Assembly: GCA_013153515.1 (NCBI GenBank)
Contig: JAADEI010000081.1
Coordinates: 1-54,091 of the forward strand
Reading direction: 5' to 3'
Source of the DNA: Chlorobiota bacterium
GTDB lineage: Bacteria > Bacteroidota > Bacteroidia > JAADEI01
Length of the DNA: 54,091 nt
Position numbers and translations under genes: made by a program. This document shows positions 15,205 to 32,798 of the stretch, piece by piece. Below the pieces are notes generated by a model. That model had not been told where the DNA came from. It saw only the letters and a list, made by a program, of their open reading frames with translations, and did not search any database. Each line of letters begins with the position of its first letter. The first letter of the stretch is position 1.

Positions 15205-15780
15205 ATGGTTAATGGACTTAAATTGATGTTATCATTCTTTATAGTAATTCCTCTTTTGTCTTTAATGCTCCCCTTCCAAAAATTCAATGTTTCCTCTTCC
15301 CGTGGAATGGTTACTCTACACTGGGAAGGATTAGAACATCTTTCTCCCAAAAGAATAATTTTACTACGCAAGAAAAAGGGAAGTGGCAAATTCAAGGAAA
15401 CTTTTTCTGCCGATGCCTCAGTGGCTTCAACATACACATTCTCTGAAACCCTTGAATCGGGAACATATGTGTATAAACTGGTTGTGATTACAGAAAAAGG
15501 CAAAAAGAAAACTGTTGGGAAACATATTGTTAACATTGAAGAGACAGGAACAGCCCTTGTCAAATGGTCTGTTTCAGGAAACACTGTTCTTGTATTCTTT
15601 GTGGAACCATCTTCCGGAACCTACACAATCAAGGACGAGTCAGGAAACATAGTAATCAGACAACCATTTGACAATAAACTATTCTTAGAACTGGTATTCC
15701 CTGAAAAGAAGGGGGAATTTTCAATAACCATAGATATTGATGGCGGCCAATCTTCCACTTTTAGCGTCTATATCAACTAA
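15205..15780 (+). CDS. Exported hypothetical protein, two beta-sandwich (Fn3/Ig-like) domains
   Basis: N-terminal hydrophobic segment; VTLHW...YTF.E....GTYVYKL pattern; convergent with ung. Confidence 0.6.
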   Translation: MVNGLKLMLSFFIVIPLLSLMLPFQKFNVSSSRGMVTLHWEGLEHLSPKRIILLRKKKGSGKFKETFSADASVASTYTFSETLESGTYVYKLVVITEKGKKKTVGKHIVNIEETGTALVKWSVSGNTVLVFFVEPSSGTYTIKDESGNIVIRQPFDNKLFLELVFPEKKGEFSITIDIDGGQSSTFSVYIN

Positions 15781-16538
15781 GGAATTCGCCAGTCTATTGG
15801 ATCTTTACCAATTGATTCCAGGTAGTGATTTGCTTTTGAAAAATGCCTACATCCAAAAAATCCATATTTAGCGGAATAAGGCGAAGGATGAGCAGCCTTT
15901 AAAATTAAATGTTTGCGAGAATCAATGAGTCTTTCTTTTTCCTGTGCAAACTTTCCCCATAGCATAAACACAACTCCCTCCTTTAGCTCGCTTATTTTCC
16001 TAATAGTTGCATCAGTAAAGATTTCCCACCCTATTCCTCTGTGACTGCCGGGTTGTCCAGCCCTAACGGTCAGGATAGCATTGAGCAGGAACACTCCTCG
16101 CTTAGCCCAAGGCGTCAGATTGCCCGTTTTAGGAATGGGAATTCCAAGGTCATCATGTAGTTCTTTATAAATGTTTTGCAATGAAGGGGGAATGGGAACA
16201 TCATCTGGAACAGAGAAGCAAAGTCCCATTGCTTGACGGGGTCCGTGATATGGGTCCTGTCCTAAAATAACCACCTTAACTTGGTCAAAAGGCGTTTGGT
16301 TATAAGCATTGAAGATCAAAGGACCCGGCGGATATATAGTGTATCCTTTCTTCTTTTCCTCAATCAGGAATTGCTTTATGCGGGCAAAATAAGGCTTTTC
16401 AAATTCTTCTTTGAGGACCTCTTTCCATGATGGATGAATCTTTGGATCAACTTTAACTTTGCTTCCTTCATCTTGGTTTCCTGAAGTGGGTCCTTCCGGT
16501 TTCTTACTCAGGAAGTCAAATAAGGTTGGTTGCTTCAC
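15777..16538 (-). CDS. ung: Uracil-DNA glycosylase family 1 with N-terminal extension
   Basis: GQDPYH, PPSLQNI, LLNAILTV, FMLWG, HPSPYS. GTG start; no ATG/GTG/TTG lies between it and the catalytic domain. Confidence 0.96.
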   Translation of the reverse strand: MKQPTLFDFLSKKPEGPTSGNQDEGSKVKVDPKIHPSWKEVLKEEFEKPYFARIKQFLIEEKKKGYTIYPPGPLIFNAYNQTPFDQVKVVILGQDPYHGPRQAMGLCFSVPDDVPIPPSLQNIYKELHDDLGIPIPKTGNLTPWAKRGVFLLNAILTVRAGQPGSHRGIGWEIFTDATIRKISELKEGVVFMLWGKFAQEKERLIDSRKHLILKAAHPSPYSAKYGFFGCRHFSKANHYLESIGKDPIDWRIP

Positions 16539-16571
16539 TGCATTGGCTTTCAGCCCAGGAGATAAATTCTC

Positions 16572-17477
16572 TTACTTAACAAATAGCCCCTTCTTTAGCT
16601 CAAAGTCACCATATCCACCAATGTGTCCATCAATATAGACTTCAACTTGATATTTGCCGGGCAAGAATTCTTGTTTTTCCGTTTCTGGCCAGACGACACA
16701 GAGGTTTTTGTCTTCTCCAGTGTAGTCAAAAGTGATTTTTGTTGTATATTGAAGTTCTGCATTCATATCCAAGTCTTTGAATCTTCCCGAACCAAGGCTT
16801 TCGTCATAGAAAATTTGTTGAGCGGGACTAATTATTCTGACATAAGCGGTTTTTGTTCCGGGTTGTACGATTGGATGTTTGAGGACATCAAAACAAACCT
16901 GAATTTCTTTTGCTTTTTTGTAATTGTAAGTTTTTATCTTCTGACCTGCTTTTTCTTTAAAGCCCCATCCTTGGATGTTTCCCACTCTTAGCATCTGGCT
17001 TTTCTGAATCTTCTCTTCCAGTTGTTGCCTTCGTTGTTGTTCCTGTTCAAGATTTTGCTTCAATTGGACATTTTCTTGTGTCAACACTTCATTTGCCTTG
17101 GCAAGTGAGTCTATCGTAGCAAGCAATTTTTCACGTTCTGCTTTGATTTCGTTATATTTCTTTTTCAAAGAGAAGTAGCTACCCTTCCATCTTTTAATTT
17201 CGTTAAGCAATGAATCTAATTGTCTCTGTTTGGCTTCAATGAGGGCATTTAGCTCTTCATTTTTGCCTTTATAGCTTTCCAGTTCTTGTTTTAAAGCAGT
17301 CAATTCGCTTTCCAGTTGAGCTTTCAACTCCATTGTTTTGGTTAACTCTTCCTGTGTCTTTTGATGTTCTTTCTTAACCTTCATATTATTATAGTAAAGC
17401 ACGCTACTTAATCCGATAAACAGAAGCAAGAGAATTATCAGGACTACCCTCCCCTTGTTGCCTTTTCCCTCAGCCAT
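16572..17477 (-). CDS. Membrane-anchored coiled-coil protein with C-terminal beta domain (conserved hypothetical)
   Basis: TM helix at residues 10-27, about 130 aa of heptad pattern, then a beta-rich domain (VCFDV, LPGKYQVEVY); own -7 promoter. Confidence 0.7.
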   Translation of the reverse strand: MAEGKGNKGRVVLIILLLLFIGLSSVLYYNNMKVKKEHQKTQEELTKTMELKAQLESELTALKQELESYKGKNEELNALIEAKQRQLDSLLNEIKRWKGSYFSLKKKYNEIKAEREKLLATIDSLAKANEVLTQENVQLKQNLEQEQQRRQQLEEKIQKSQMLRVGNIQGWGFKEKAGQKIKTYNYKKAKEIQVCFDVLKHPIVQPGTKTAYVRIISPAQQIFYDESLGSGRFKDLDMNAELQYTTKITFDYTGEDKNLCVVWPETEKQEFLPGKYQVEVYIDGHIGGYGDFELKKGLFVK

Positions 17478-19338: not shown

Positions 19339-20538
19339 ATGAAAATTCTGGAATCTTTAAGGTTATTCATCTTGACCCTCATCTGTTCAGGGGAATTGCT
19401 TTTTGCTCAAAGTACCATAACTATAATGCAATATAACCTTTTGCGTTATGGGGCATCACCGATCGTGGAAAAAAACCAAGTTTGCTCTGCCATAATCAAC
19501 TTTGTTAATCCGGACATTTTATGCATAAACGAAGTGTTGCCGACCTATGCAGATTCCTTAGAACTTGTGTTGAAAAGCCTTGACAGTTCTTGGACTCTGG
19601 CTCCTTGGTCTAATGTCTCAGGGGGAACAGTTGTTAATGTTCTGCTATACAGAAAAGACAGGGTTACCTTCGTCAGACAACGAACAGTAGAGACTCTTGT
19701 CAGGGATATTCCAGTATATTGGTTATTGGTCTCCGATAGCATTCCATTAGTGATTGCCGTTGCCCACTTGAAAGCAGGATCTAATTCAACCAGTGAGCAA
19801 CAACGCAGATGGATGGTTGAAGCCCTTATTGATAGCCTAACCAACTGGAATGTGGATAGATGGATCCTCGTGGGCGACCTGAATTTCTATTCTTCCGAAG
19901 ACACTTCATACAAACTGTTAATAAACCATCCAGACCCTCGCTTTAGATTGGTTGATCCTTTCCCTTCTGGGCAATGGCACAATAATGCCCTATTTGCTTC
20001 ATACCACACGCAATCCACCCGGGATACGTTGTTGTCTGATGGCGGGGCAACGGGGGGTATGGACGACCGATTTGATTTCATCTTGCCATCGGTTAGATAC
20101 TTTGAACCGCCCTATCAATGGGACACTTTCTATGTGTTTGCCCAAGACGGAAATCACTTCAACAAGTCCATCCTTGATTCTCCACCTTTACCTGTTCCAG
20201 AAACCATCGCAACTGCACTATACTTCTGCTCTGACCATTTACCTGTTTTAGCGACTCTTTCTTTACCAGATAAACCTGTTCAGGATACTGTAATATCCAC
20301 GTCGGAACCAAATGATTTACACAACTGCCAAATTATCAGTAACACCAGCCAAATCACAATTCCTCACTGTTCGCAAATCATTGCAATAACCACCATTGAG
20401 GGGAAACAAATCTTAATTAACAGTCCCATTGCTCGTTTGGCACTTAATTACACCAACAGATTAATGATTGTCAGTTATGAACAACCGCATCATGTCTCAC
20501 AAAACCACATTAAACACGTTAAATTGATTATAGAGTAA
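19339..20538 (+). CDS. Secreted endonuclease/exonuclease/phosphatase (EEP) family protein with T9SS-CTD-like tail
   Basis: Signal peptide ending FAQ; QYNLL, INEV, AHLKA, VGDLN, DRFDFI, SDHLPV; about 80-aa beta tail ending KLIIE. Confidence 0.85.
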   Translation: MKILESLRLFILTLICSGELLFAQSTITIMQYNLLRYGASPIVEKNQVCSAIINFVNPDILCINEVLPTYADSLELVLKSLDSSWTLAPWSNVSGGTVVNVLLYRKDRVTFVRQRTVETLVRDIPVYWLLVSDSIPLVIAVAHLKAGSNSTSEQQRRWMVEALIDSLTNWNVDRWILVGDLNFYSSEDTSYKLLINHPDPRFRLVDPFPSGQWHNNALFASYHTQSTRDTLLSDGGATGGMDDRFDFILPSVRYFEPPYQWDTFYVFAQDGNHFNKSILDSPPLPVPETIATALYFCSDHLPVLATLSLPDKPVQDTVISTSEPNDLHNCQIISNTSQITIPHCSQIIAITTIEGKQILINSPIARLALNYTNRLMIVSYEQPHHVSQNHIKHVKLIIE

Positions 20539-22197: not shown

Positions 22198-25100
22198 ATG
22201 AATAAAGCAGATAAAGCACCTTTGATTAGTGTATATAAGAAACTATGTCCTGTTTGTGGGGAAGAGATAGACAACGATAGGCTCTGGTTGGGGTTGCCTT
22301 GTCGGAAATGTGTTCCAGACCCTGCTCCACTTAATGTCAGGCTCAATAGAGGCTTGTTTAAGAGGTTTTATAAAACTCAACAACTAACCACCGAATTCTC
22401 CAAATTTTTTAAGAAAGCCACGGGGTTTGATATCGCCCGTTTGCAAGTGTTATGGACAAAAAGATTTTTCTTGGGGGAATCCTTCGCTATAATGTCTCCT
22501 CCGGGACTCGGCAAGACAACGTGGGGATTGACCCTCAGCCTATTTATCGAAGGGAAAGTATTAATTCTTGTGCCGACCAGATTGCTTGGCGAACAAGTAT
22601 TAAACAGGCTTTCTGAATATGCATCAAAAACAAATTCACGAAAAAGAATTTTGTTTTACAAAAGTTCCCAAAAGATCAAGAAGCAATATGAAAATGGCGA
22701 ATATGATATATTGATTGGCACAACCAGATTCTTTTATTTGCATTTGTCCGAACTGAAAAAAGTGCCTTTCTCTTTCATCTTCATTGACGATGTTGACTCT
22801 TTCCTGAAGCAGCCACGCAGCGTGGAAAGACTAATGAATTTTCTCAACATCCCTTATAGCCTTGTTCAGAAAGCAATGGAACCGAACTTGCCACCGGAAG
22901 ATTTAAATCGGCTCTATGAACAAGCCCAACGATTCATAAACAAACAACTAATCATATCTTCTGCCACCTTAAAGCCTCGTCCCGCTCAAATAAGGCTTTT
23001 CAGACGATTGTTGGGGTTTGATATTCAAAAAAGCATAACGACCCTGAGGCAAATAACCGATGCAAAGAAGGGGCTTAATTCTTTGGAAGAGATAATGAAA
23101 AGGGCAGTTGAGATAATAAAAGAAGTTGGTAGTGGGGGACTGGTCTTCCTCTCTCCAATGCTTGGAAGCAAACATCTGGACTCTGTATTGGAACACCTAA
23201 GGAATAATGGCATAAACGCCATTTCTTATACGGAACATAGCACAGCGGAATTGATTAAGATAATGCAGTCTGGGGAATTTGATGTTGCCGTGGGGATCGC
23301 CCATGCTATGAATCCACTTGTCAGGGGAATAGACCTTCCCTCCGTGTTGAAATATGCTATATTTCTTGAACCTCCTGTTTTTATGTTTCCATTGAAGCAG
23401 GAACCTGTTCCATCCAGACTGTATGTCCTGCTAATAAACATTGTAAATGCCCTTCCGGAAGACTTGCGAACAACTGCTTTCTCTTGGATTCAATACCTGA
23501 GGGACAAACGCTATATTTCCGCCAAGGCGATAGAGGGCAATCCGACGTTAAAATCTAAACTGGAACAGATCGCTTCCACCCTCCAACAATGGCTCAATGA
23601 CCCGGGAATTCAAAGAAAATTAAATGAGTCGGACGATGTTTTCATAAAATTCATTGACGGACAGTGGTATATCATCATTGGCGACGCAACAAGTTATATC
23701 CAAGCGTCTGGACGAACCAGTCGCCTCACTCCTCACGGCTTGACGGAAGGGCTATCAATAGTCCTTTATTCAGAGCCCAAAGCAATGAGAAGCCTTGAAA
23801 AACGATTAAACATATTTTTTCCTTCTGCCCAAATTCAATTTAAAAATCTGGATGAACTGAACTTACAAGAAATTAAAAAAAGGCTTATTGAATCCCGACA
23901 GGAAACCGTTGAACGCAATAGACCATCTTTCTCCTCAACCCTTGTGATTGTTGAATCTCCCACCAAGGCAAAGACCCTTGCTTCATTCATAGGGACTCCA
24001 CAGATGCGTAAGACAGATGGCGTCATTGCTTATGAAGTGCCGGGGGCAGACAGAATGTGGATATTCACCGCTTCACTCGGACACATAACAGACCTCATCA
24101 CTGATGAAGGGTATTGGGGCGTTAGGATTGGGGGCGATGAAGGGTTCCTGCCTGTCTATAATACTATCAAGCATTGCGACACGGAAAAAGGACGGATTCA
24201 ATTCACTGATGATGACCCGCCCTCTCCCTGCTCTAAAAGACCCATATCAGACAAAAAAGAAATTATTGATGGACTGAGAAAATTAGCCTTTCAAGTTGAT
24301 GAAGTTATTATTGCAACCGACCCAGATACCGAAGGCGAAAAAATCGGATTTGATAACTGGCATGCTATAAGACCTTACCAACGTAATGTTTTGAGAAGTG
24401 AGTTTCATGAGATAACGCCCGCAGGCTTCAAGAAAGCAATTCAACAAGCCAGAATAGTTAATTTCAATTGGGTTAAGGCACAGATTGCCCGTCGGATAGC
24501 AGACAGATGGGTCGGATTCTATTTCTCACAATATCTATGGAAAAGATTTAGGAACAAGTTTTTGTCAGCGGGAAGGGTTCAAACTCCTGTCTTAAAATGG
24601 GTCATTGATCGGACGTTAAAGGCACGCACCAAAGTGCCCGTAGTAACCTTTAAAGTTCAAAATGTTCAATTTGAACTACCAGCCCAAAACAGGCAGGACG
24701 CCAATCAGAAAATTAATTTGCTCCGGAAAGCAAACATAACTCTAAGCGACGAAAAAACTACGCAAAAAAATCCCGCTCCCCCTTTCACCACAGACAAAAT
24801 TCTGCAGGAAGCCAACACCCTACTGAGAATAGATGTCAACACCACTATGAAACTACTACAAGAACTCTTTGAAAATGGCTTGATAACATATCACAGAACA
24901 GATAGTACACACGTGTCAGACACGGGGATTTATGCCGTTGCAAAGCCTTTCATCGTGGAAACAGCAGGCGAAGAATACTTTTATCCCAGGCACTGGGGAC
25001 AGGAAGGAACCCATGAAGCGATCAGACCAACCAGACCACTCACACCAGATGACTTAACAATACAAATTTCATCGGGGATATACACCTTCTCCGACAATCA

Positions 25101-25719
25101 AAAAGCCCTTCATCTGTATGATTTAATTTTCTTTTGGTTCATGGCTTCACAAGCCTCTCCAGCGAAAGTGAAGCAAGCCACCTTATCCATAATGTCGCCT
25201 GATGGCAACCTGCTAATCCAAAAACTCGTGATAACCCAGATTGAGTTTGATGGATACTTAAAATTCGCTCACAAATTTGTACGACTTGAACAAATTGACC
25301 CTTCACAACCTCTAAAACTCTCTGACATAAAAATAACCCACAAGCCTTTGGAACCTCCCTTCACACAAGGCGAACTAATCAAAACAATGAAAGAAAGGAA
25401 ACTGGGACGTCCCTCCACATACGCCAAGATAGTGGAAACCCTTCTTAACAGGAAATATGTCAGCGAACACCGTGGACGCCTATACGCCACTAAACTGGGA
25501 ATGCAAGTCTATAAATGTTTGCTTCAGGACTGTCCAATTCAACCCGAAAAACGACGCCTCCTTTCAGAAGACTTCACACGGGAATTGGAAGAACTAATGG
25601 ATAGGATAAGCGAAGGGGAAGAAAGACTAAAAAACGTGCTTAATAGATACTTCACTATATTGGAATTGAGACCTGTGCATAAACCCTTTCAACACAGTCA
25701 TAAACCAGACTCCTATTAA
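22198..25719 (+). CDS. rgy: Reverse gyrase
   Basis: N-terminal CPVC-x17-CRKC Zn finger. SF2 helicase motifs PPGLGKTT, DDVD, SAT, YIQASGRTSR. Type IA topoisomerase motifs IVESPTKA, ATDPDTEGEKI, SAGRVQTP, LITYHRTDS (catalytic Tyr), GRPSTYA. 1173 aa. Confidence 0.97.
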   Translation: MNKADKAPLISVYKKLCPVCGEEIDNDRLWLGLPCRKCVPDPAPLNVRLNRGLFKRFYKTQQLTTEFSKFFKKATGFDIARLQVLWTKRFFLGESFAIMSPPGLGKTTWGLTLSLFIEGKVLILVPTRLLGEQVLNRLSEYASKTNSRKRILFYKSSQKIKKQYENGEYDILIGTTRFFYLHLSELKKVPFSFIFIDDVDSFLKQPRSVERLMNFLNIPYSLVQKAMEPNLPPEDLNRLYEQAQRFINKQLIISSATLKPRPAQIRLFRRLLGFDIQKSITTLRQITDAKKGLNSLEEIMKRAVEIIKEVGSGGLVFLSPMLGSKHLDSVLEHLRNNGINAISYTEHSTAELIKIMQSGEFDVAVGIAHAMNPLVRGIDLPSVLKYAIFLEPPVFMFPLKQEPVPSRLYVLLINIVNALPEDLRTTAFSWIQYLRDKRYISAKAIEGNPTLKSKLEQIASTLQQWLNDPGIQRKLNESDDVFIKFIDGQWYIIIGDATSYIQASGRTSRLTPHGLTEGLSIVLYSEPKAMRSLEKRLNIFFPSAQIQFKNLDELNLQEIKKRLIESRQETVERNRPSFSSTLVIVESPTKAKTLASFIGTPQMRKTDGVIAYEVPGADRMWIFTASLGHITDLITDEGYWGVRIGGDEGFLPVYNTIKHCDTEKGRIQFTDDDPPSPCSKRPISDKKEIIDGLRKLAFQVDEVIIATDPDTEGEKIGFDNWHAIRPYQRNVLRSEFHEITPAGFKKAIQQARIVNFNWVKAQIARRIADRWVGFYFSQYLWKRFRNKFLSAGRVQTPVLKWVIDRTLKARTKVPVVTFKVQNVQFELPAQNRQDANQKINLLRKANITLSDEKTTQKNPAPPFTTDKILQEANTLLRIDVNTTMKLLQELFENGLITYHRTDSTHVSDTGIYAVAKPFIVETAGEEYFYPRHWGQEGTHEAIRPTRPLTPDDLTIQISSGIYTFSDNQKALHLYDLIFFWFMASQASPAKVKQATLSIMSPDGNLLIQKLVITQIEFDGYLKFAHKFVRLEQIDPSQPLKLSDIKITHKPLEPPFTQGELIKTMKERKLGRPSTYAKIVETLLNRKYVSEHRGRLYATKLGMQVYKCLLQDCPIQPEKRRLLSEDFTRELEELMDRISEGEERLKNVLNRYFTILELRPVHKPFQHSHKPDSY

Positions 25720-28644: not shown

Positions 28645-29370
28645 CTATTTACCTGCCACAAGTTGGTTTTCGTATCTCAAATCAATCGTTTTGTAAGTCT
28701 GCCACAATCCATGTTTTTTGATGAATTTGAAGAATTTGCGTAATTTATTTAGTTTTCCATCCAAGCGGTCATCAACCTCCCCGATTATTATTTTTTGCCT
28801 GTCAACCCTGCTTATTAAGACCCATCCGTGCGAGGAAGAGTAAGTTATGTGCCCGATTATTGATGTTAGAAACTTGTTTTTATTTATATGTTTAATTAAA
28901 GTTTTTAAGTCGTTTATTTTCTCACTGATTGTATAGGCATCTGTGTATAAGAGAACAACTGGGACATATACAGGCTTTGAAACCTCTGTAATAAGGAAAA
29001 TGGTTCCGTCCTCCGCCATGTAATAGCTCTCTCCGCCGAAAGTGATGATTCTGGCTATTGGCACGTGTTCCTCAATCCTTACAACAAGGGTTGAATCGTG
29101 GGATATGAACAAGTGGGCTTCTCTGATTGGCTCCAATTCTTCCAGTTTGCTTTCTATCTCTTCCAAACGTTGTGGCTTGATAGAATCAGCGTTTCCAAGT
29201 ATCTGGAAAATAACTGTTGAATCCACAAACCGCAAATCCCCCTCCACTCTCAGTTTGTTAAAAGTTGGTTTCCACGAGAAGGCACTGGCAAGCAAAACAA
29301 TAAGTGTCGCAACTAAGAAAACCAAATATGCCCAATCCTTCACCATTTTCTTAAACTCCTGCACTCTCAT
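28645..29370 (-). CDS. ftsQ: Cell division protein FtsQ/DivIB
   Basis: One TM, POTRA-like IESKLEELEPIREAHL, VRIEEHVPIARI, IDLRYENQLV; position between murC/B and ftsA. Confidence 0.85.
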   Translation of the reverse strand: MRVQEFKKMVKDWAYLVFLVATLIVLLASAFSWKPTFNKLRVEGDLRFVDSTVIFQILGNADSIKPQRLEEIESKLEELEPIREAHLFISHDSTLVVRIEEHVPIARIITFGGESYYMAEDGTIFLITEVSKPVYVPVVLLYTDAYTISEKINDLKTLIKHINKNKFLTSIIGHITYSSSHGWVLISRVDRQKIIIGEVDDRLDGKLNKLRKFFKFIKKHGLWQTYKTIDLRYENQLVAGK

Positions 29371-31684
29371 CGGGAACAAATTTTCCTATTTTCTGAACCT
29401 CCATCTGTAACAAAACACCACGTCTGTTAAACACTTCATTGCGAACATGCTCAATTAACCGAAGCATATCAAGTGCAGTAGCATTATTAGCGTTAATCAG
29501 GAAATTAGCGTGTTTAGGGCTAACCATTACCCCTCCCACAGAAAACCCCTTTAAGCCCAATTCATCAATCAATTTGCCGGCAGGCAATTCAATAGACGGG
29601 TTTTTAAATATGCATCCTGCATTAGGCTTATTAAGCGGTTGCGACGTGTTACGCTTCTTCAACAAGTTCCTTCTCCTTTCCAATGCCTCCTCTATGTCAT
29701 CAATTGGTTTCAATTTCAGGACAGCCTCCAGAATGATTGAGTCATAAAGGTCTGTATAGCGATAGGCATATCTAACCTGTCCCTTTCTTAGTCGTTGGAT
29801 TCTACCATCCCTGAACACCTCAACCTCCTCTATGAAATCAAATATCTCAGCCCCATAAGCCCCGGCATTCATCAGGACAGCACCCCCCACCGTCCCGGGA
29901 ATCCCAGCCAATGGTTCCAATCCCCCCAGCCCGGCTTTAATCATCTTCAAGACGAAGGCGGGCAGGTCAACGCCGGCACCCACCACAACACGCCCATCAC
30001 CCAAAATCTCATAGTAATTCAATGCTTTGCCTACATTCATAACTATGGCATCCATACCATAGTCCCCCACCAATAAGTTGGAACCACGTCCCAGAACGAA
30101 ATATGGCAGGTCTTCCTTGGCAATAAATTCAAGCAAGTTCAATAATTCTTGTTTGTCCTGTGGATTGACGAAGAACAGTGCTTCCCCACCAATTCGCAGA
30201 GTTGTATGTTTTGATAATGGCTCCCTTTCCTTGACATTTTGGGTTATTTCATAGAGTTTTTGTCGTGTGGTCTCTTGTTTCAATTTCCTAACGCCCTCTT
30301 TCATAAACCACCTGTCCAACAGCACTTCCTTAAAGCGGTCTGCCAGTTTGTTTATGTCTCCGGCACCGAGAATAACCAGCACCCTTGGTCTCCTCCGTCG
30401 CACAAACTCAACAAGGGAATCAAAGGGAATGTAGAACTTATCTGGATGTTCCACATGCTTGAGAATCAAATAAGGGTCAACGCCGGCAATGGGCTTTTCC
30501 CGTGCAGGATAGATGTCTGTAACGACCACGGCATCCGCCTCACTAAGCGACTTCCCGAATTCCTCAGCGAAGGCTTGCGTCCGACTATATAAATGCGGAT
30601 GGAATATCACAGTTATTTTTTCGTCTGGGTATAGGGTTCTGACCGTTTTAAGGGCTTCCTTCACCTCAGTGGGATGATGGGCATAGTCATCAATGAATGC
30701 CCTGAAATAATCAGCATAATAAATCTGGAACCTTCTTTCAATGCCCTGAAATTCCACTAACTCATTGCCCGATAAGGTCAATCCCTGAGCATAAAGGGTT
30801 GTCACAGCACCCGTTATGTTTGAAGCATTATGTTTTCCTGGCAAAGAAATGGGTTGTTTAAACTCAATGTTTCCATAAGGCAAATCAATAAGAAAGGAAA
30901 ATTCAGGTAATTCAAGTGGTTTTCTGACCATACGGAACGAATGCCCCCGCACATCAGCGTAGTCCTCAATGCCATACGTAATCACTTCAATATCGTCTCT
31001 GTGAATGGAAAGCAAGTTTCTGACTGTGGCATTGATTATTAATTTCCCTCCCGGCTTTATATTCCCCACAAACTGGTTAAAAGCATCTATGAAATCCTCA
31101 AAAGTCGGATAAATATCCGTGTGATCCCATTCTATGTGAGTGATTACTGCCACGGTCGGTTTCAGCAACAGGAAAGACCGGTCATATTCATCTGCTTCCA
31201 CAACAAAAGTCCGGTTGTCTCCTGCAACATAGTTGGAACCATAGTTCAATGGGATTGCTCCAAGGAAAGCCGTCGGTCGCCTCCCCGCTTTATCCATCAA
31301 ATAGGTTATCAACGTGGAAGTCGTTGATTTTCCGTGTGTTCCGGCGACGGCAATCAGGTCTCCTTGGTTAACTATTTGTGCCAGCAGTTCAGCCCGTTTG
31401 ATTAAGGGAATCCCACGGTCTATCACTCCTTTGAGCAATGGGTCTTCAAGGGACAGGGCGGGCGTCCACACAACAAGCCCGGGCATCTCCCGGTCAATCA
31501 GTTCAAGAGCCTCCCGTTCGGAATGCACAATAGTCATTCCTTCTCTGGAAAGCGTTTCGGTCAGTTGGGTTCTTGCCCTGTCATAGCCATAAATAGAGTG
31601 TCCCTGTGAGTTCAGGAAGCGAGCCAAGGCACTCATACCTATCCCGCCAATCCCAGCAAAAAATATCTTTTCAGGCAAGTTCAT
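29351..31684 (-). CDS. murC/murB: MurC-MurB fusion (UDP-MurNAc--L-Ala ligase + UDP-N-acetylenolpyruvoylglucosamine reductase)
   Basis: MurC: GIGGIGMSALA, GTHGKSTT, EADEYDRSFL, DDYAHHPTE. MurB: HTTLRIGG, LGRGSNLL, GIPGTVGGAVLMNAGAYG, QPLNKPNAGCIFKNP, SPKHANFLIN. Single ORF (track start 31708; likely start 31684). Confidence 0.92.
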   Translation of the reverse strand: MNLPEKIFFAGIGGIGMSALARFLNSQGHSIYGYDRARTQLTETLSREGMTIVHSEREALELIDREMPGLVVWTPALSLEDPLLKGVIDRGIPLIKRAELLAQIVNQGDLIAVAGTHGKSTTSTLITYLMDKAGRRPTAFLGAIPLNYGSNYVAGDNRTFVVEADEYDRSFLLLKPTVAVITHIEWDHTDIYPTFEDFIDAFNQFVGNIKPGGKLIINATVRNLLSIHRDDIEVITYGIEDYADVRGHSFRMVRKPLELPEFSFLIDLPYGNIEFKQPISLPGKHNASNITGAVTTLYAQGLTLSGNELVEFQGIERRFQIYYADYFRAFIDDYAHHPTEVKEALKTVRTLYPDEKITVIFHPHLYSRTQAFAEEFGKSLSEADAVVVTDIYPAREKPIAGVDPYLILKHVEHPDKFYIPFDSLVEFVRRRRPRVLVILGAGDINKLADRFKEVLLDRWFMKEGVRKLKQETTRQKLYEITQNVKEREPLSKHTTLRIGGEALFFVNPQDKQELLNLLEFIAKEDLPYFVLGRGSNLLVGDYGMDAIVMNVGKALNYYEILGDGRVVVGAGVDLPAFVLKMIKAGLGGLEPLAGIPGTVGGAVLMNAGAYGAEIFDFIEEVEVFRDGRIQRLRKGQVRYAYRYTDLYDSIILEAVLKLKPIDDIEEALERRRNLLKKRNTSQPLNKPNAGCIFKNPSIELPAGKLIDELGLKGFSVGGVMVSPKHANFLINANNATALDMLRLIEHVRNEVFNRRGVLLQMEVQKIGKFVPDESAGV

Positions 31685-32798
31685 CACTATATTTTTTAGC
31701 CTGTTCAACTATTATTTCCGCAATCCTTTCAGTTGCCTGCGGATTACCAAACTGCTTTATCCTCTCTGCAAGGGCTTGCCTCCTGCTTTCATCACCCAAC
31801 AATTCAAGCACTGTCGGAATGAGCTTGTCCTTCTCATGTTCCTCAACCATCACTATGGCACCCTGTTGAGCGAGAGACTCTGCATTCTTCCGTTGATGGT
31901 CATCGGCAACATTGGGCGAAGGAACTATAACCGCCGGCTTCCCAGCAACAGCCAATTCAGACAGGGCACTGGCACCAGCCCTTGACACAACCACATCAGC
32001 AACCCGATAGGCATAATCCATTCTGTCTATGAATTGTCCCTGCCAGACCCTTCCCCTCCATTCCTCAGGATTCCATTTCATCTGTGGAACTTCCTGCTTG
32101 CCGGTCTGCCAGATTATCTGATAGCCTTTCTGCAAAATCTTCTCCCCTTCCTCAGCAATAATTTGATTGAAAAATGCCGAACCAAGACTACCCCCCGTTA
32201 CCAACACAGTGGGTCTGTCTTCCAAGCCGAAGTATTCCAATGCCTCAGACCGTGGAATCTTATCATAATTCAAAATGCTTTGTCTAACCGGATTGCCCGT
32301 GTAAACATGATTATACTTCTCCAATTCTTTCGCCGGCAACACAAGGGTTATGACCGATGCCTTCGGCGCCAACAGCCTGACGGCAAGTCCCGGAACAGCA
32401 TTCTGTTCGTGCAACACAACGGGAATGTTATTTGCAAAGCGTCCCCACACAACAGGAACGCTCACATAAGCCCCAAGAGAGAAGATAACATCCGGCTTGA
32501 AATCAGAAATAATGTTATAAGCCTGAATTATGCTAACAAACATTTTTATGGGAAGCAAGATGTTATCCCACCATTTGGTTCGTTGCAACCCACTTATCCA
32601 AACCGTTTTAATTGGAAAGCCATATTTAGGCACAATTTCCGTTTCCATCCTGTCCTTCGCACCGACAAACAGCACCTCAGCACCATAGTTATCACGCAGA
32701 TGTTGAGCCACCGCTATTGCAGGGAATATATGTCCACCTGTTCCGCCCGCAGAAACCAACACTCTAAGCCGTCTGTCCATCCCCTTCGCTTTGTTCAA
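31671..32798 (-). CDS. murG: Lipid II GlcNAc transferase MurG
   Basis: GGTGGHIFPA, HEQNAVPG, GNPVR, GGSLG, SRAGASALSE, ADDHQRKNA. Confidence 0.97.
   Translation of the reverse strand: MNKAKGMDRRLRVLVSAGGTGGHIFPAIAVAQHLRDNYGAEVLFVGAKDRMETEIVPKYGFPIKTVWISGLQRTKWWDNILLPIKMFVSIIQAYNIISDFKPDVIFSLGAYVSVPVVWGRFANNIPVVLHEQNAVPGLAVRLLAPKASVITLVLPAKELEKYNHVYTGNPVRQSILNYDKIPRSEALEYFGLEDRPTVLVTGGSLGSAFFNQIIAEEGEKILQKGYQIIWQTGKQEVPQMKWNPEEWRGRVWQGQFIDRMDYAYRVADVVVSRAGASALSELAVAGKPAVIVPSPNVADDHQRKNAESLAQQGAIVMVEEHEKDKLIPTVLELLGDESRRQALAERIKQFGNPQATERIAEIIVEQAKKYSDELA

Follow-up and report, generated by a model that had tools for sequence, protein, structure and literature searches.

Why does a bacterial uracil-DNA glycosylase begin some 30 residues ahead of its catalytic domain, and what might the peptide at the tip of that extension do? 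The question is raised by the ung gene of contig JAADEI010000081.1 from a Chlorobiota bacterium (assembly GCA_013153515.1), of which the entire 54,091-nucleotide stretch was analysed and is referred to here as the window. The gene lies at 15777..16538 on the minus strand and encodes a 253-residue family-1 enzyme (Ung); its codons 1-30 (16449..16538) translate as (M)KQPTLFDFLSKKPEGPTSGNQDEGSKVKV, and the N-terminal peptide that carries the pentapeptide QPTLF is MKQPTLFDFLSKK. The original prediction, made from the letters of the DNA, read this peptide as a sliding-clamp motif and proposed replication-coupled uracil repair as an adaptation to heat. From sequence comparison and structure prediction we conclude that QPTLF is probably an N-terminal motif that docks Ung on DnaN, the bacterial β sliding clamp, and would thereby give clamp-coupled uracil repair. 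The elements on which the first steps of the argument depend are the following.

15777..16448, minus strand: family-1 uracil-DNA glycosylase catalytic domain, codons 31-253 plus the stop codon (NCBIfam, Pfam PF03167, PDB, AlphaFold2)
16536..16538, minus strand: GTG start codon of ung, the sole ATG, GTG or TTG in frame from the stop at 16574..16572 to codon 74
16539..16571, minus strand: intergenic spacer of 33 nucleotides between the upstream gene and ung, in which the block GGCTGAAAG..GCCAAT is kept in relatives

The enzyme behind the extension is of a familiar kind. Five NCBIfam Ung equivalog models match the protein well over their cutoffs and only from residue 30-36 on, the best of them (NF003589) with 346.6 bits (cutoff 223) and TIGR00628 with 273.5 bits (cutoff 185.75), over residues 33-252. 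Pfam PF03167 matches as well, and 43 solved Ung chains in the PDB match with E-values down to 4e-83, all aligning from residue 33-37 on. Since family models and solved chains align only past about residue 30, the extension of about 30 residues claimed by the original prediction is real, and the catalytic domain begins near residue 31-33. An AlphaFold2 model of the protein, built with a 46-sequence alignment, has a predicted template modelling score (pTM) of 0.83 and a core with a predicted local distance difference test score (pLDDT) above 90 from about residue 31; residues 1-26 score below 50 and are predicted to be disordered, with a low-confidence helical turn at residues 7-10. Motif A is present as GQDPYHG at residues 93-99 and motif B as HPSPYS at residues 217-222 (15873..15890, minus strand), where the His is conserved and a Tyr replaces the usual Leu. 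The Leu of HPSPLS in motif B is the DNA-intercalating residue of Ung enzymes, and Tyr or Phe at its position is common in the Bacteroidota homologues that we recovered. The window gene thus encodes what appears to be an ordinary family-1 uracil-DNA glycosylase, presumably active. Its closest relatives are found in genomes of uncultured Bacteroidetes assembled from metagenomes (metagenome-assembled genomes, MAGs), namely Dive100_bin10.107 (92%) and S141_62 (88%), and its catalytic domain is about 70% identical to the Ungs of Chitinophagaceae. Among the other homologues, a 361-residue protein (P0003, ENA) contains about 140 catalytic-domain residues in tandem duplication (KELHDDLGCYIPDNGY... twice), possibly an assembly artefact.

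The protein opens (GTG)KQPTLFDFLSKKPEGPTSGNQDEGSKVKVDPKIHPSWKE, and the reading frame leaves little choice about where it does so. The in-frame TAA at 16574..16572 doubles as the stop codon of the preceding gene, and the standard start codons that come after the GTG at 16538 (TTG, GTG and ATG at codons 74, 89 and 104, respectively) all lie within the conserved core; the codon listing therefore agrees with the original prediction that the GTG is the only standard start available. The rare alternative starts are a CTG at -4 and an ATT at codon 34. In the clade to which the window gene belongs, GTG stands at the matching position in 6/6 members. Close relatives that lack the extension begin MDVKIE.SWK, and the codon equivalent to their start encodes Val (GTT or GTA) in the window and in two clade members (L001 and L002), so that an upstream start has become obligatory. 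A two-codon open reading frame (ORF), ATG CAG TGA at 16535..16543 on the minus strand, overlaps the GTG in another frame; its ATG is not kept in L001 or L241, and it is probably meaningless.

Evidence that the arm matters comes from how its parts have evolved. The original prediction had proposed that the N-termini of relatives be aligned for conservation of the motif, and this was done with the coding sequences of six clade members (the window, L001, L002, L241, L243 and L246), for which the ratio of nonsynonymous to synonymous differences (pN/pS) was obtained from Nei-Gojobori counts summed over sequence pairs. The arm divides as follows.

16518..16532, minus strand: candidate β-clamp-binding pentapeptide QPTLF, codons 3-7, matching Qxx[L/M]F
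16509..16535, minus strand: conserved motif block KQPTLFDFL, codons 2-10, with pN/pS 0.07 and pairwise identity 0.96
16458..16508, minus strand: hypervariable polar linker, codons 11-27 (SKKPEGPTSGNQDEGSK), with pN/pS 0.56, pairwise identity 0.50 and in-frame insertions and deletions

For comparison, the catalytic core has a pN/pS of 0.06 and a pairwise identity of 0.94 in the same sequences. Residues 2-10 read K/R-QPTLFDFL in five of the six, while the sixth (L002) has MRTLFDFL and so keeps TLF; synonymous differences are present inside the L-F-D-F-L codons, and despite the insertions and deletions in the linker the frame is open in all relatives. An island of conservation in a stretch that otherwise evolves fast is characteristic of a short linear motif. 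These codon-level patterns show that translation from the GTG includes the arm of some 30 residues and that purifying selection holds its motif as tightly as the catalytic core, whereas the linker is nearly free of selection. Of the window's 44 ORFs with 150 residues or more, no other carries a strict QxxLF at a terminus.

Similar arms recur well beyond this clade. Approximately 320 untargeted Ung loci from four scans were read at the DNA level, and about 98% of them are of the short form, starting 5-13 residues before the conserved Trp, which bears out the earlier statement that a typical bacterial Ung begins at its catalytic domain. N-terminal arms are found in a minority, where x-L-F often falls within the first nine residues, in a recurrent layout of Met, x-L-F motif and polar or proline-rich linker. 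Three such lineages, with N-termini MSQLELF... (P0007/P0277), MCP[RK]TLPLFGSEF... (P0005/P0276) and MALLF... (P0004), share with the window clade a gene order in which a DUF8428/DUF8429 gene precedes ung; their arms retain only the xLF core and are, judging by this synteny, probably orthologous to that of the window. Further, independent examples from Bacteroidota are MPDLFSQP... in a Chitinophagales MAG (L008/P0113, P0074), MNDLFNQ... in a Bacteroidales MAG (L080), MQG[ND]LFETP... (P0028/P0278) and MPDQLALFEDN... (P0125) on short contigs or fragments, and MKQFGIFGTQ... on a groundwater contig from Hainich (L122); the shared gene order is absent at L008, L080 and L122, the loci checked. The PDB chains 2BOO, 4UQM and 3UFM, which are taken, in line with a review, to be Deinococcus radiodurans UNG, begin MTDQPDLFGLAPDAPRPIIPANLPEDW, that is, MTDQPDLF followed by a Pro-rich linker, and their QPDLF-bearing peptide is MTDQPDLFGLAP. 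The Ung of Deinococcus arenicola (L250) begins MSDQPDLFGNAPDAARPIIP..., with MSDQPDLF and the same Pro-rich linker design, and that of a Lentisphaeria MAG (L256) begins MSDHPDLFSAPEPSPPPK..., with MSDHPDLF, for which a relative (L254) has a degenerate MPDHHDPF. The layout is thus found in at least three phyla (Bacteroidota, Deinococcota and Lentisphaerota).

The frequency of the motif in these arms was compared with its background in 1033 control ORFs, of which 0.29% have Qxx[LIM]F among their first 10 residues and 3.3% have LF in residues 2-9. Among about 21 extension-bearing Ung lineages, conservatively grouped, Qxx[LIM]F is found in 5 (binomial probability ~4e-9) and LF in 7 (~3e-6), and by these counts the recurrence of the motif is beyond chance. 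Wider searches added little: in a metagenome scan the window clade gained no members, the best match being 70% identical, and a profile search focused on the N-terminus and run over 1.84 billion representatives yielded for the most part fragments and Ungs of the short form, the only additions being P0125 and two eukaryote-type UNGs. A genome scan seeded with P0007 failed to recover P0007's own clade.

A 2024 review of the β-clamp writes its binding motifs as either Q-phi-x-[L/M]-[F/L] or Q-phi-x-[L/M]-x-[F/L] and places them in termini or loops that are disordered, with position 3 free and a Gln that is important and not essential; Hda is its N-terminal example. QPTLF fits this consensus at Gln 1, Leu 4 and Phe 5, and its position, at residues 3-7 of a terminus predicted to be disordered, is accessible. 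The earlier claim of clamp-likeness therefore stands at positions 1, 4 and 5 and falls short at position 2, which is Pro rather than an aliphatic residue. A Pro at this position is nonetheless found in a validated motif: in a 2026 study of phage Mu, two-hybrid assays and point mutants demonstrated that MuC binds DnaN via QHDLF at its N-terminus (residues 2-6) and QPDLF at its C-terminus, and the family consensus was given as Qx[D/E][L/M]F and QPDLF. QPTLF is one residue from QPDLF, the MuC peptide is identical to that of Deinococcus UNG, and related Ungs carry the fully canonical motifs QLELF and QLALF.

These observations suggest how the arm could work. On this reading, a family-1 Ung has gained an N-terminal arm, some 30 residues long and intrinsically disordered, and the QPTLF at its tip would most likely occupy the hydrophobic pocket in which DnaN receives its protein partners. 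The variable linker, about 20 residues long, would serve as a tether, or leash, that lets the catalytic domain scan DNA beside a loaded clamp, whether at the replication fork, behind it or at repair patches, and docking could help to pass the abasic product to other clients of the clamp. The outcome would be a bacterial counterpart, by convergence, of human UNG2 on PCNA. For the wider set of enzymes the balance of the comparative evidence tips slightly toward a similar reading, in which a scattered but recurrent subset of Ungs in Bacteroidota, Lentisphaerota and Deinococcota, the crystallised D. radiodurans UNG among them, would be direct clamp clients via an N-terminal QxxLF; clamp-coupled excision of uracil would then have arisen convergently in bacteria and eukaryotes on one and the same enzyme, at its N-terminal end and with a nearly identical peptide, and the clamp link would be alternative or additional to recruitment by the tail of SSB.

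Several observations weigh against clamp docking. The Pro at position 2 is not aliphatic, and a Leu there adds affinity in E. coli peptides. The Gln, an important determinant of affinity, is missing from L002 (MRTLFDFL) and from the PDLF, NDLF and ALLF lineages. About 13 extension-bearing Ung lineages have no LF at all (e.g. Acaryochloris MTTEATPT..., P0011 and L063), from which it also follows that the motif marks a specific class of arm and is not a by-product of extension, and the grouping of lineages behind the enrichment, conservative as it is, was made by hand. Lastly, Ung is tied to replication forks via the C-terminal tail of SSB in E. coli, M. tuberculosis and B. subtilis, where a clamp link is not required.

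Could the arm be something other than a clamp tether, or not be made at all? The window gene has been called twice, as 253 residues from the GTG (P0273, JGI/IMG) and as a 220-residue protein, 'MHPSW' (P0002), that starts at the non-standard ATT of codon 34 (16437..16439) and drops the whole motif and linker; if the second call were right, the motif would never be made. The absence of a strong Shine-Dalgarno sequence from the 33-nucleotide spacer ahead of the GTG might be taken to favour such a downstream start, but Bacteroidota do not generally rely on Shine-Dalgarno sequences. Moreover, conservation at the amino-acid level with synonymous changes upstream of codon 34, next to a variable linker, strongly disfavours it, as do the open frame with in-frame insertions and deletions in all relatives, the invariant GTG and the long form called by other annotators (P0001, P0273), and we regard a downstream start as highly improbable. 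A translated but neutral leader, recruited when the ancestral ATG was lost and resembling a clamp motif by chance, is improbable to a lesser degree. It would account for the mutation of the ancestral start to Val, for a linker that evolves almost freely (pN/pS 0.56) and for the fact that most relatives function without any extension, yet it does not account for a motif constrained on a par with the catalytic core (0.07) or for its recurrence in unrelated lineages far over background.

A functional motif might still serve a partner other than DnaN, such as a polymerase, a ligase or a nucleoid protein, or might act through fold-back regulation of DNA binding or as a signal for degradation or localisation. 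Selection on the motif says nothing of the identity of its partner, the Gln is dispensable in several lineages, and the conserved, co-oriented neighbour encoding a membrane coiled-coil protein hints at another association; the window clade, in addition, keeps a block (TLFDFL) longer than the clamp pentapeptide, so that extra contacts or another partner may be involved. On the other side, the core common to different phyla is exactly of the clamp type, [Q/x]-x-x-L-F at a disordered terminus, and QLELF, QLALF and QPDLF are clamp motifs that are either canonical or backed by experiment; we know of no other bacterial hub that reads a QxxLF-type motif. A different partner is therefore an unlikely explanation, though one to be taken seriously. 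A PCNA-type motif acquired with the gene from a eukaryote, an archaeon or a virus, by contrast, is scarcely credible. Human UNG2 carries at its extreme N-terminus a PCNA-interacting peptide (PIP) box, QKTLYSFF, on a disordered arm and binds PCNA, and QPTLFDFL resembles both this peptide and the N-termini of two eukaryote-type UNGs, P0231 (MKSQQKTLDSFLGKPKK) and P0189 (MQTSLSSFF). Against the PIP consensus Q-x-x-[ILM]-x-x-[FY]-[FY], however, QPTLFDFL fits at positions 1, 4 and 7 and departs from the pattern with Leu at position 8, although P0231 likewise has Leu there (QKTLDSFL). The closest relatives of the motif are bacterial (Deinococcus QPDLF), bacteria use the DnaN clamp and not PCNA, and the catalytic domain is of Bacteroidota type and lies in conserved Bacteroidota synteny; this, together with the failure at position 8, argues for convergence rather than transfer. 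The PIP-like character noted in the original prediction is accordingly an analogy only.

The proposed link to heat fared less well than the motif itself. A full-length reverse gyrase, with zinc finger, helicase, Toprim and topoisomerase IA domains, is indeed encoded at 22198..25719 on the plus strand, 5.7 kb from ung (the original prediction gave about 6 kb). Its presence in a Bacteroidota MAG suggests a thermophilic lifestyle, with which it is consistent, and the host is described as a heat-vent Bacteroidota. Motif-bearing Ungs are, however, found in mesophile settings, namely Deinococcus, a soil MAG from a Danish survey (L008) and the Hainich groundwater contig (L122), whereas the thermophilic Bacteroidota Thermoflavifilum (P0020, P0050) and Anaerophaga thermohalophila (L176) have short-form Ungs without the motif. 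We therefore rejected the idea that the motif is an adaptation to heat-driven cytosine deamination.

The surroundings of ung include one gene that has kept company with it.

16572..17477, minus strand: gene for a membrane-anchored coiled-coil protein (DUF8428/DUF8429, by precomputed Pfam assignment), immediately upstream of ung and co-oriented with it

A search of its product against the local Pfam copy gave no significant hit. The order of this gene followed by ung is kept in the window clade and at the P0005, P0277 and P0004 loci, in lineages that also have N-terminal arms (L241, L243, L247, L248 and L249), and in L248 the end of the coiled-coil gene (4004) overlaps the start of ung (4001) by 4 nucleotides. 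On the other side of ung, a 191-residue ORF without a family match (15205..15780, plus strand) converges on the gene and overlaps its stop codon by 4 nucleotides; a gene of 191-207 residues is called at the same place in relatives L241-L243. The window does not contain dnaN; the neighbours of ung are the dcw cluster, an ABC transporter, pur genes and rgy. An EEP-family gene at 19339..20538 was considered as a possible Xth partner and rejected, as its N-terminus resembles a signal peptide and it matches no NCBIfam model. Within the dcw cluster, a single ORF of 785 residues at 29351..31708 (minus strand) combines Mur ligase (MurC-type), MurB FAD-binding and C-terminal domains and is an apparent MurC-MurB fusion.

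Bacterial Ung is usually seen as a stand-alone enzyme, with the SSB tail as its sole known link to the replisome. A search of the accessible full-text literature found no description of a clamp motif on a bacterial Ung: the accessible reviews of the β-clamp name no glycosylase of the Ung family as a client, the 2024 review mentions neither uracil nor Ung nor glycosylases, and the accessible papers on D. radiodurans UNG and on the D. radiodurans β-clamp, like the clamp reviews, make no mention of such a motif. If the motif binds DnaN, uracil excision would join the bacterial clamp 'tool-belt', a clean case of convergence with human UNG2 and PCNA would be in hand, and the unremarked N-terminal tail of the crystallised D. 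radiodurans UNG would be explained; gene callers and annotators that trim such starts, as in P0002, would be discarding functional information. Purification and crystallisation of both Deinococcus proteins, UNG and the β-clamp, have been achieved before, which makes a test of the hypothesis inexpensive.

The proposed arrangement can be placed beside several known systems. Recruitment of bacterial Ung by the C-terminal tail of SSB resembles it in that a hub protein brings the enzyme to replication forks, but in that case SSB supplies the motif and Ung the pocket, whereas here Ung supplies the motif and the clamp would supply the pocket; neither mechanism precludes the other. Other enzymes of base-excision repair also use a sliding clamp as a platform, among them archaeal uracil-DNA glycosylases on PCNA and, in bacteria, M. 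tuberculosis XthA and Nei2, S. aureus Nfo and LigA. The archaeal enzymes, however, belong to other glycosylase families and bind PCNA, and the bacterial partners are apurinic/apyrimidinic endonucleases, Nei or ligase rather than Ung. In the form of the motif, the closest parallels are Hda (QLSLPL) and the MuC/Mor proteins (QHDLF, with QPDLF at the C-terminus), which likewise present a core Q-x-x-[L/M]-F, with Pro or His among the residues seen at position 2, within the first 10 residues of a disordered terminus; those are a regulator of replication initiation and transcription factors whose binding is demonstrated, whereas the candidate client in the window is a DNA glycosylase for which binding is inferred. 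D. radiodurans UNG shares the full design of MTDQPDLF, Pro-rich linker and catalytic domain, with a motif one residue from QPTLF that is conserved in D. arenicola, but it comes from another phylum and a mesophile host and has a shorter linker. In human UNG2, finally, as in P0189 and P0231, a family-1 domain sits behind a disordered arm tipped by a clamp-docking-type peptide, Q-x-T-L-x-x-F-x, and the role proposed here, removal of uracil coupled to a sliding clamp, would be the same. Unlike in the human enzyme, the clamp would be the DnaN dimer, the arm is only about 30 residues long and has no RPA-binding region, and the motif fits the bacterial QxxLF pattern while failing the PIP box at position 8, which points to an origin that was probably independent.
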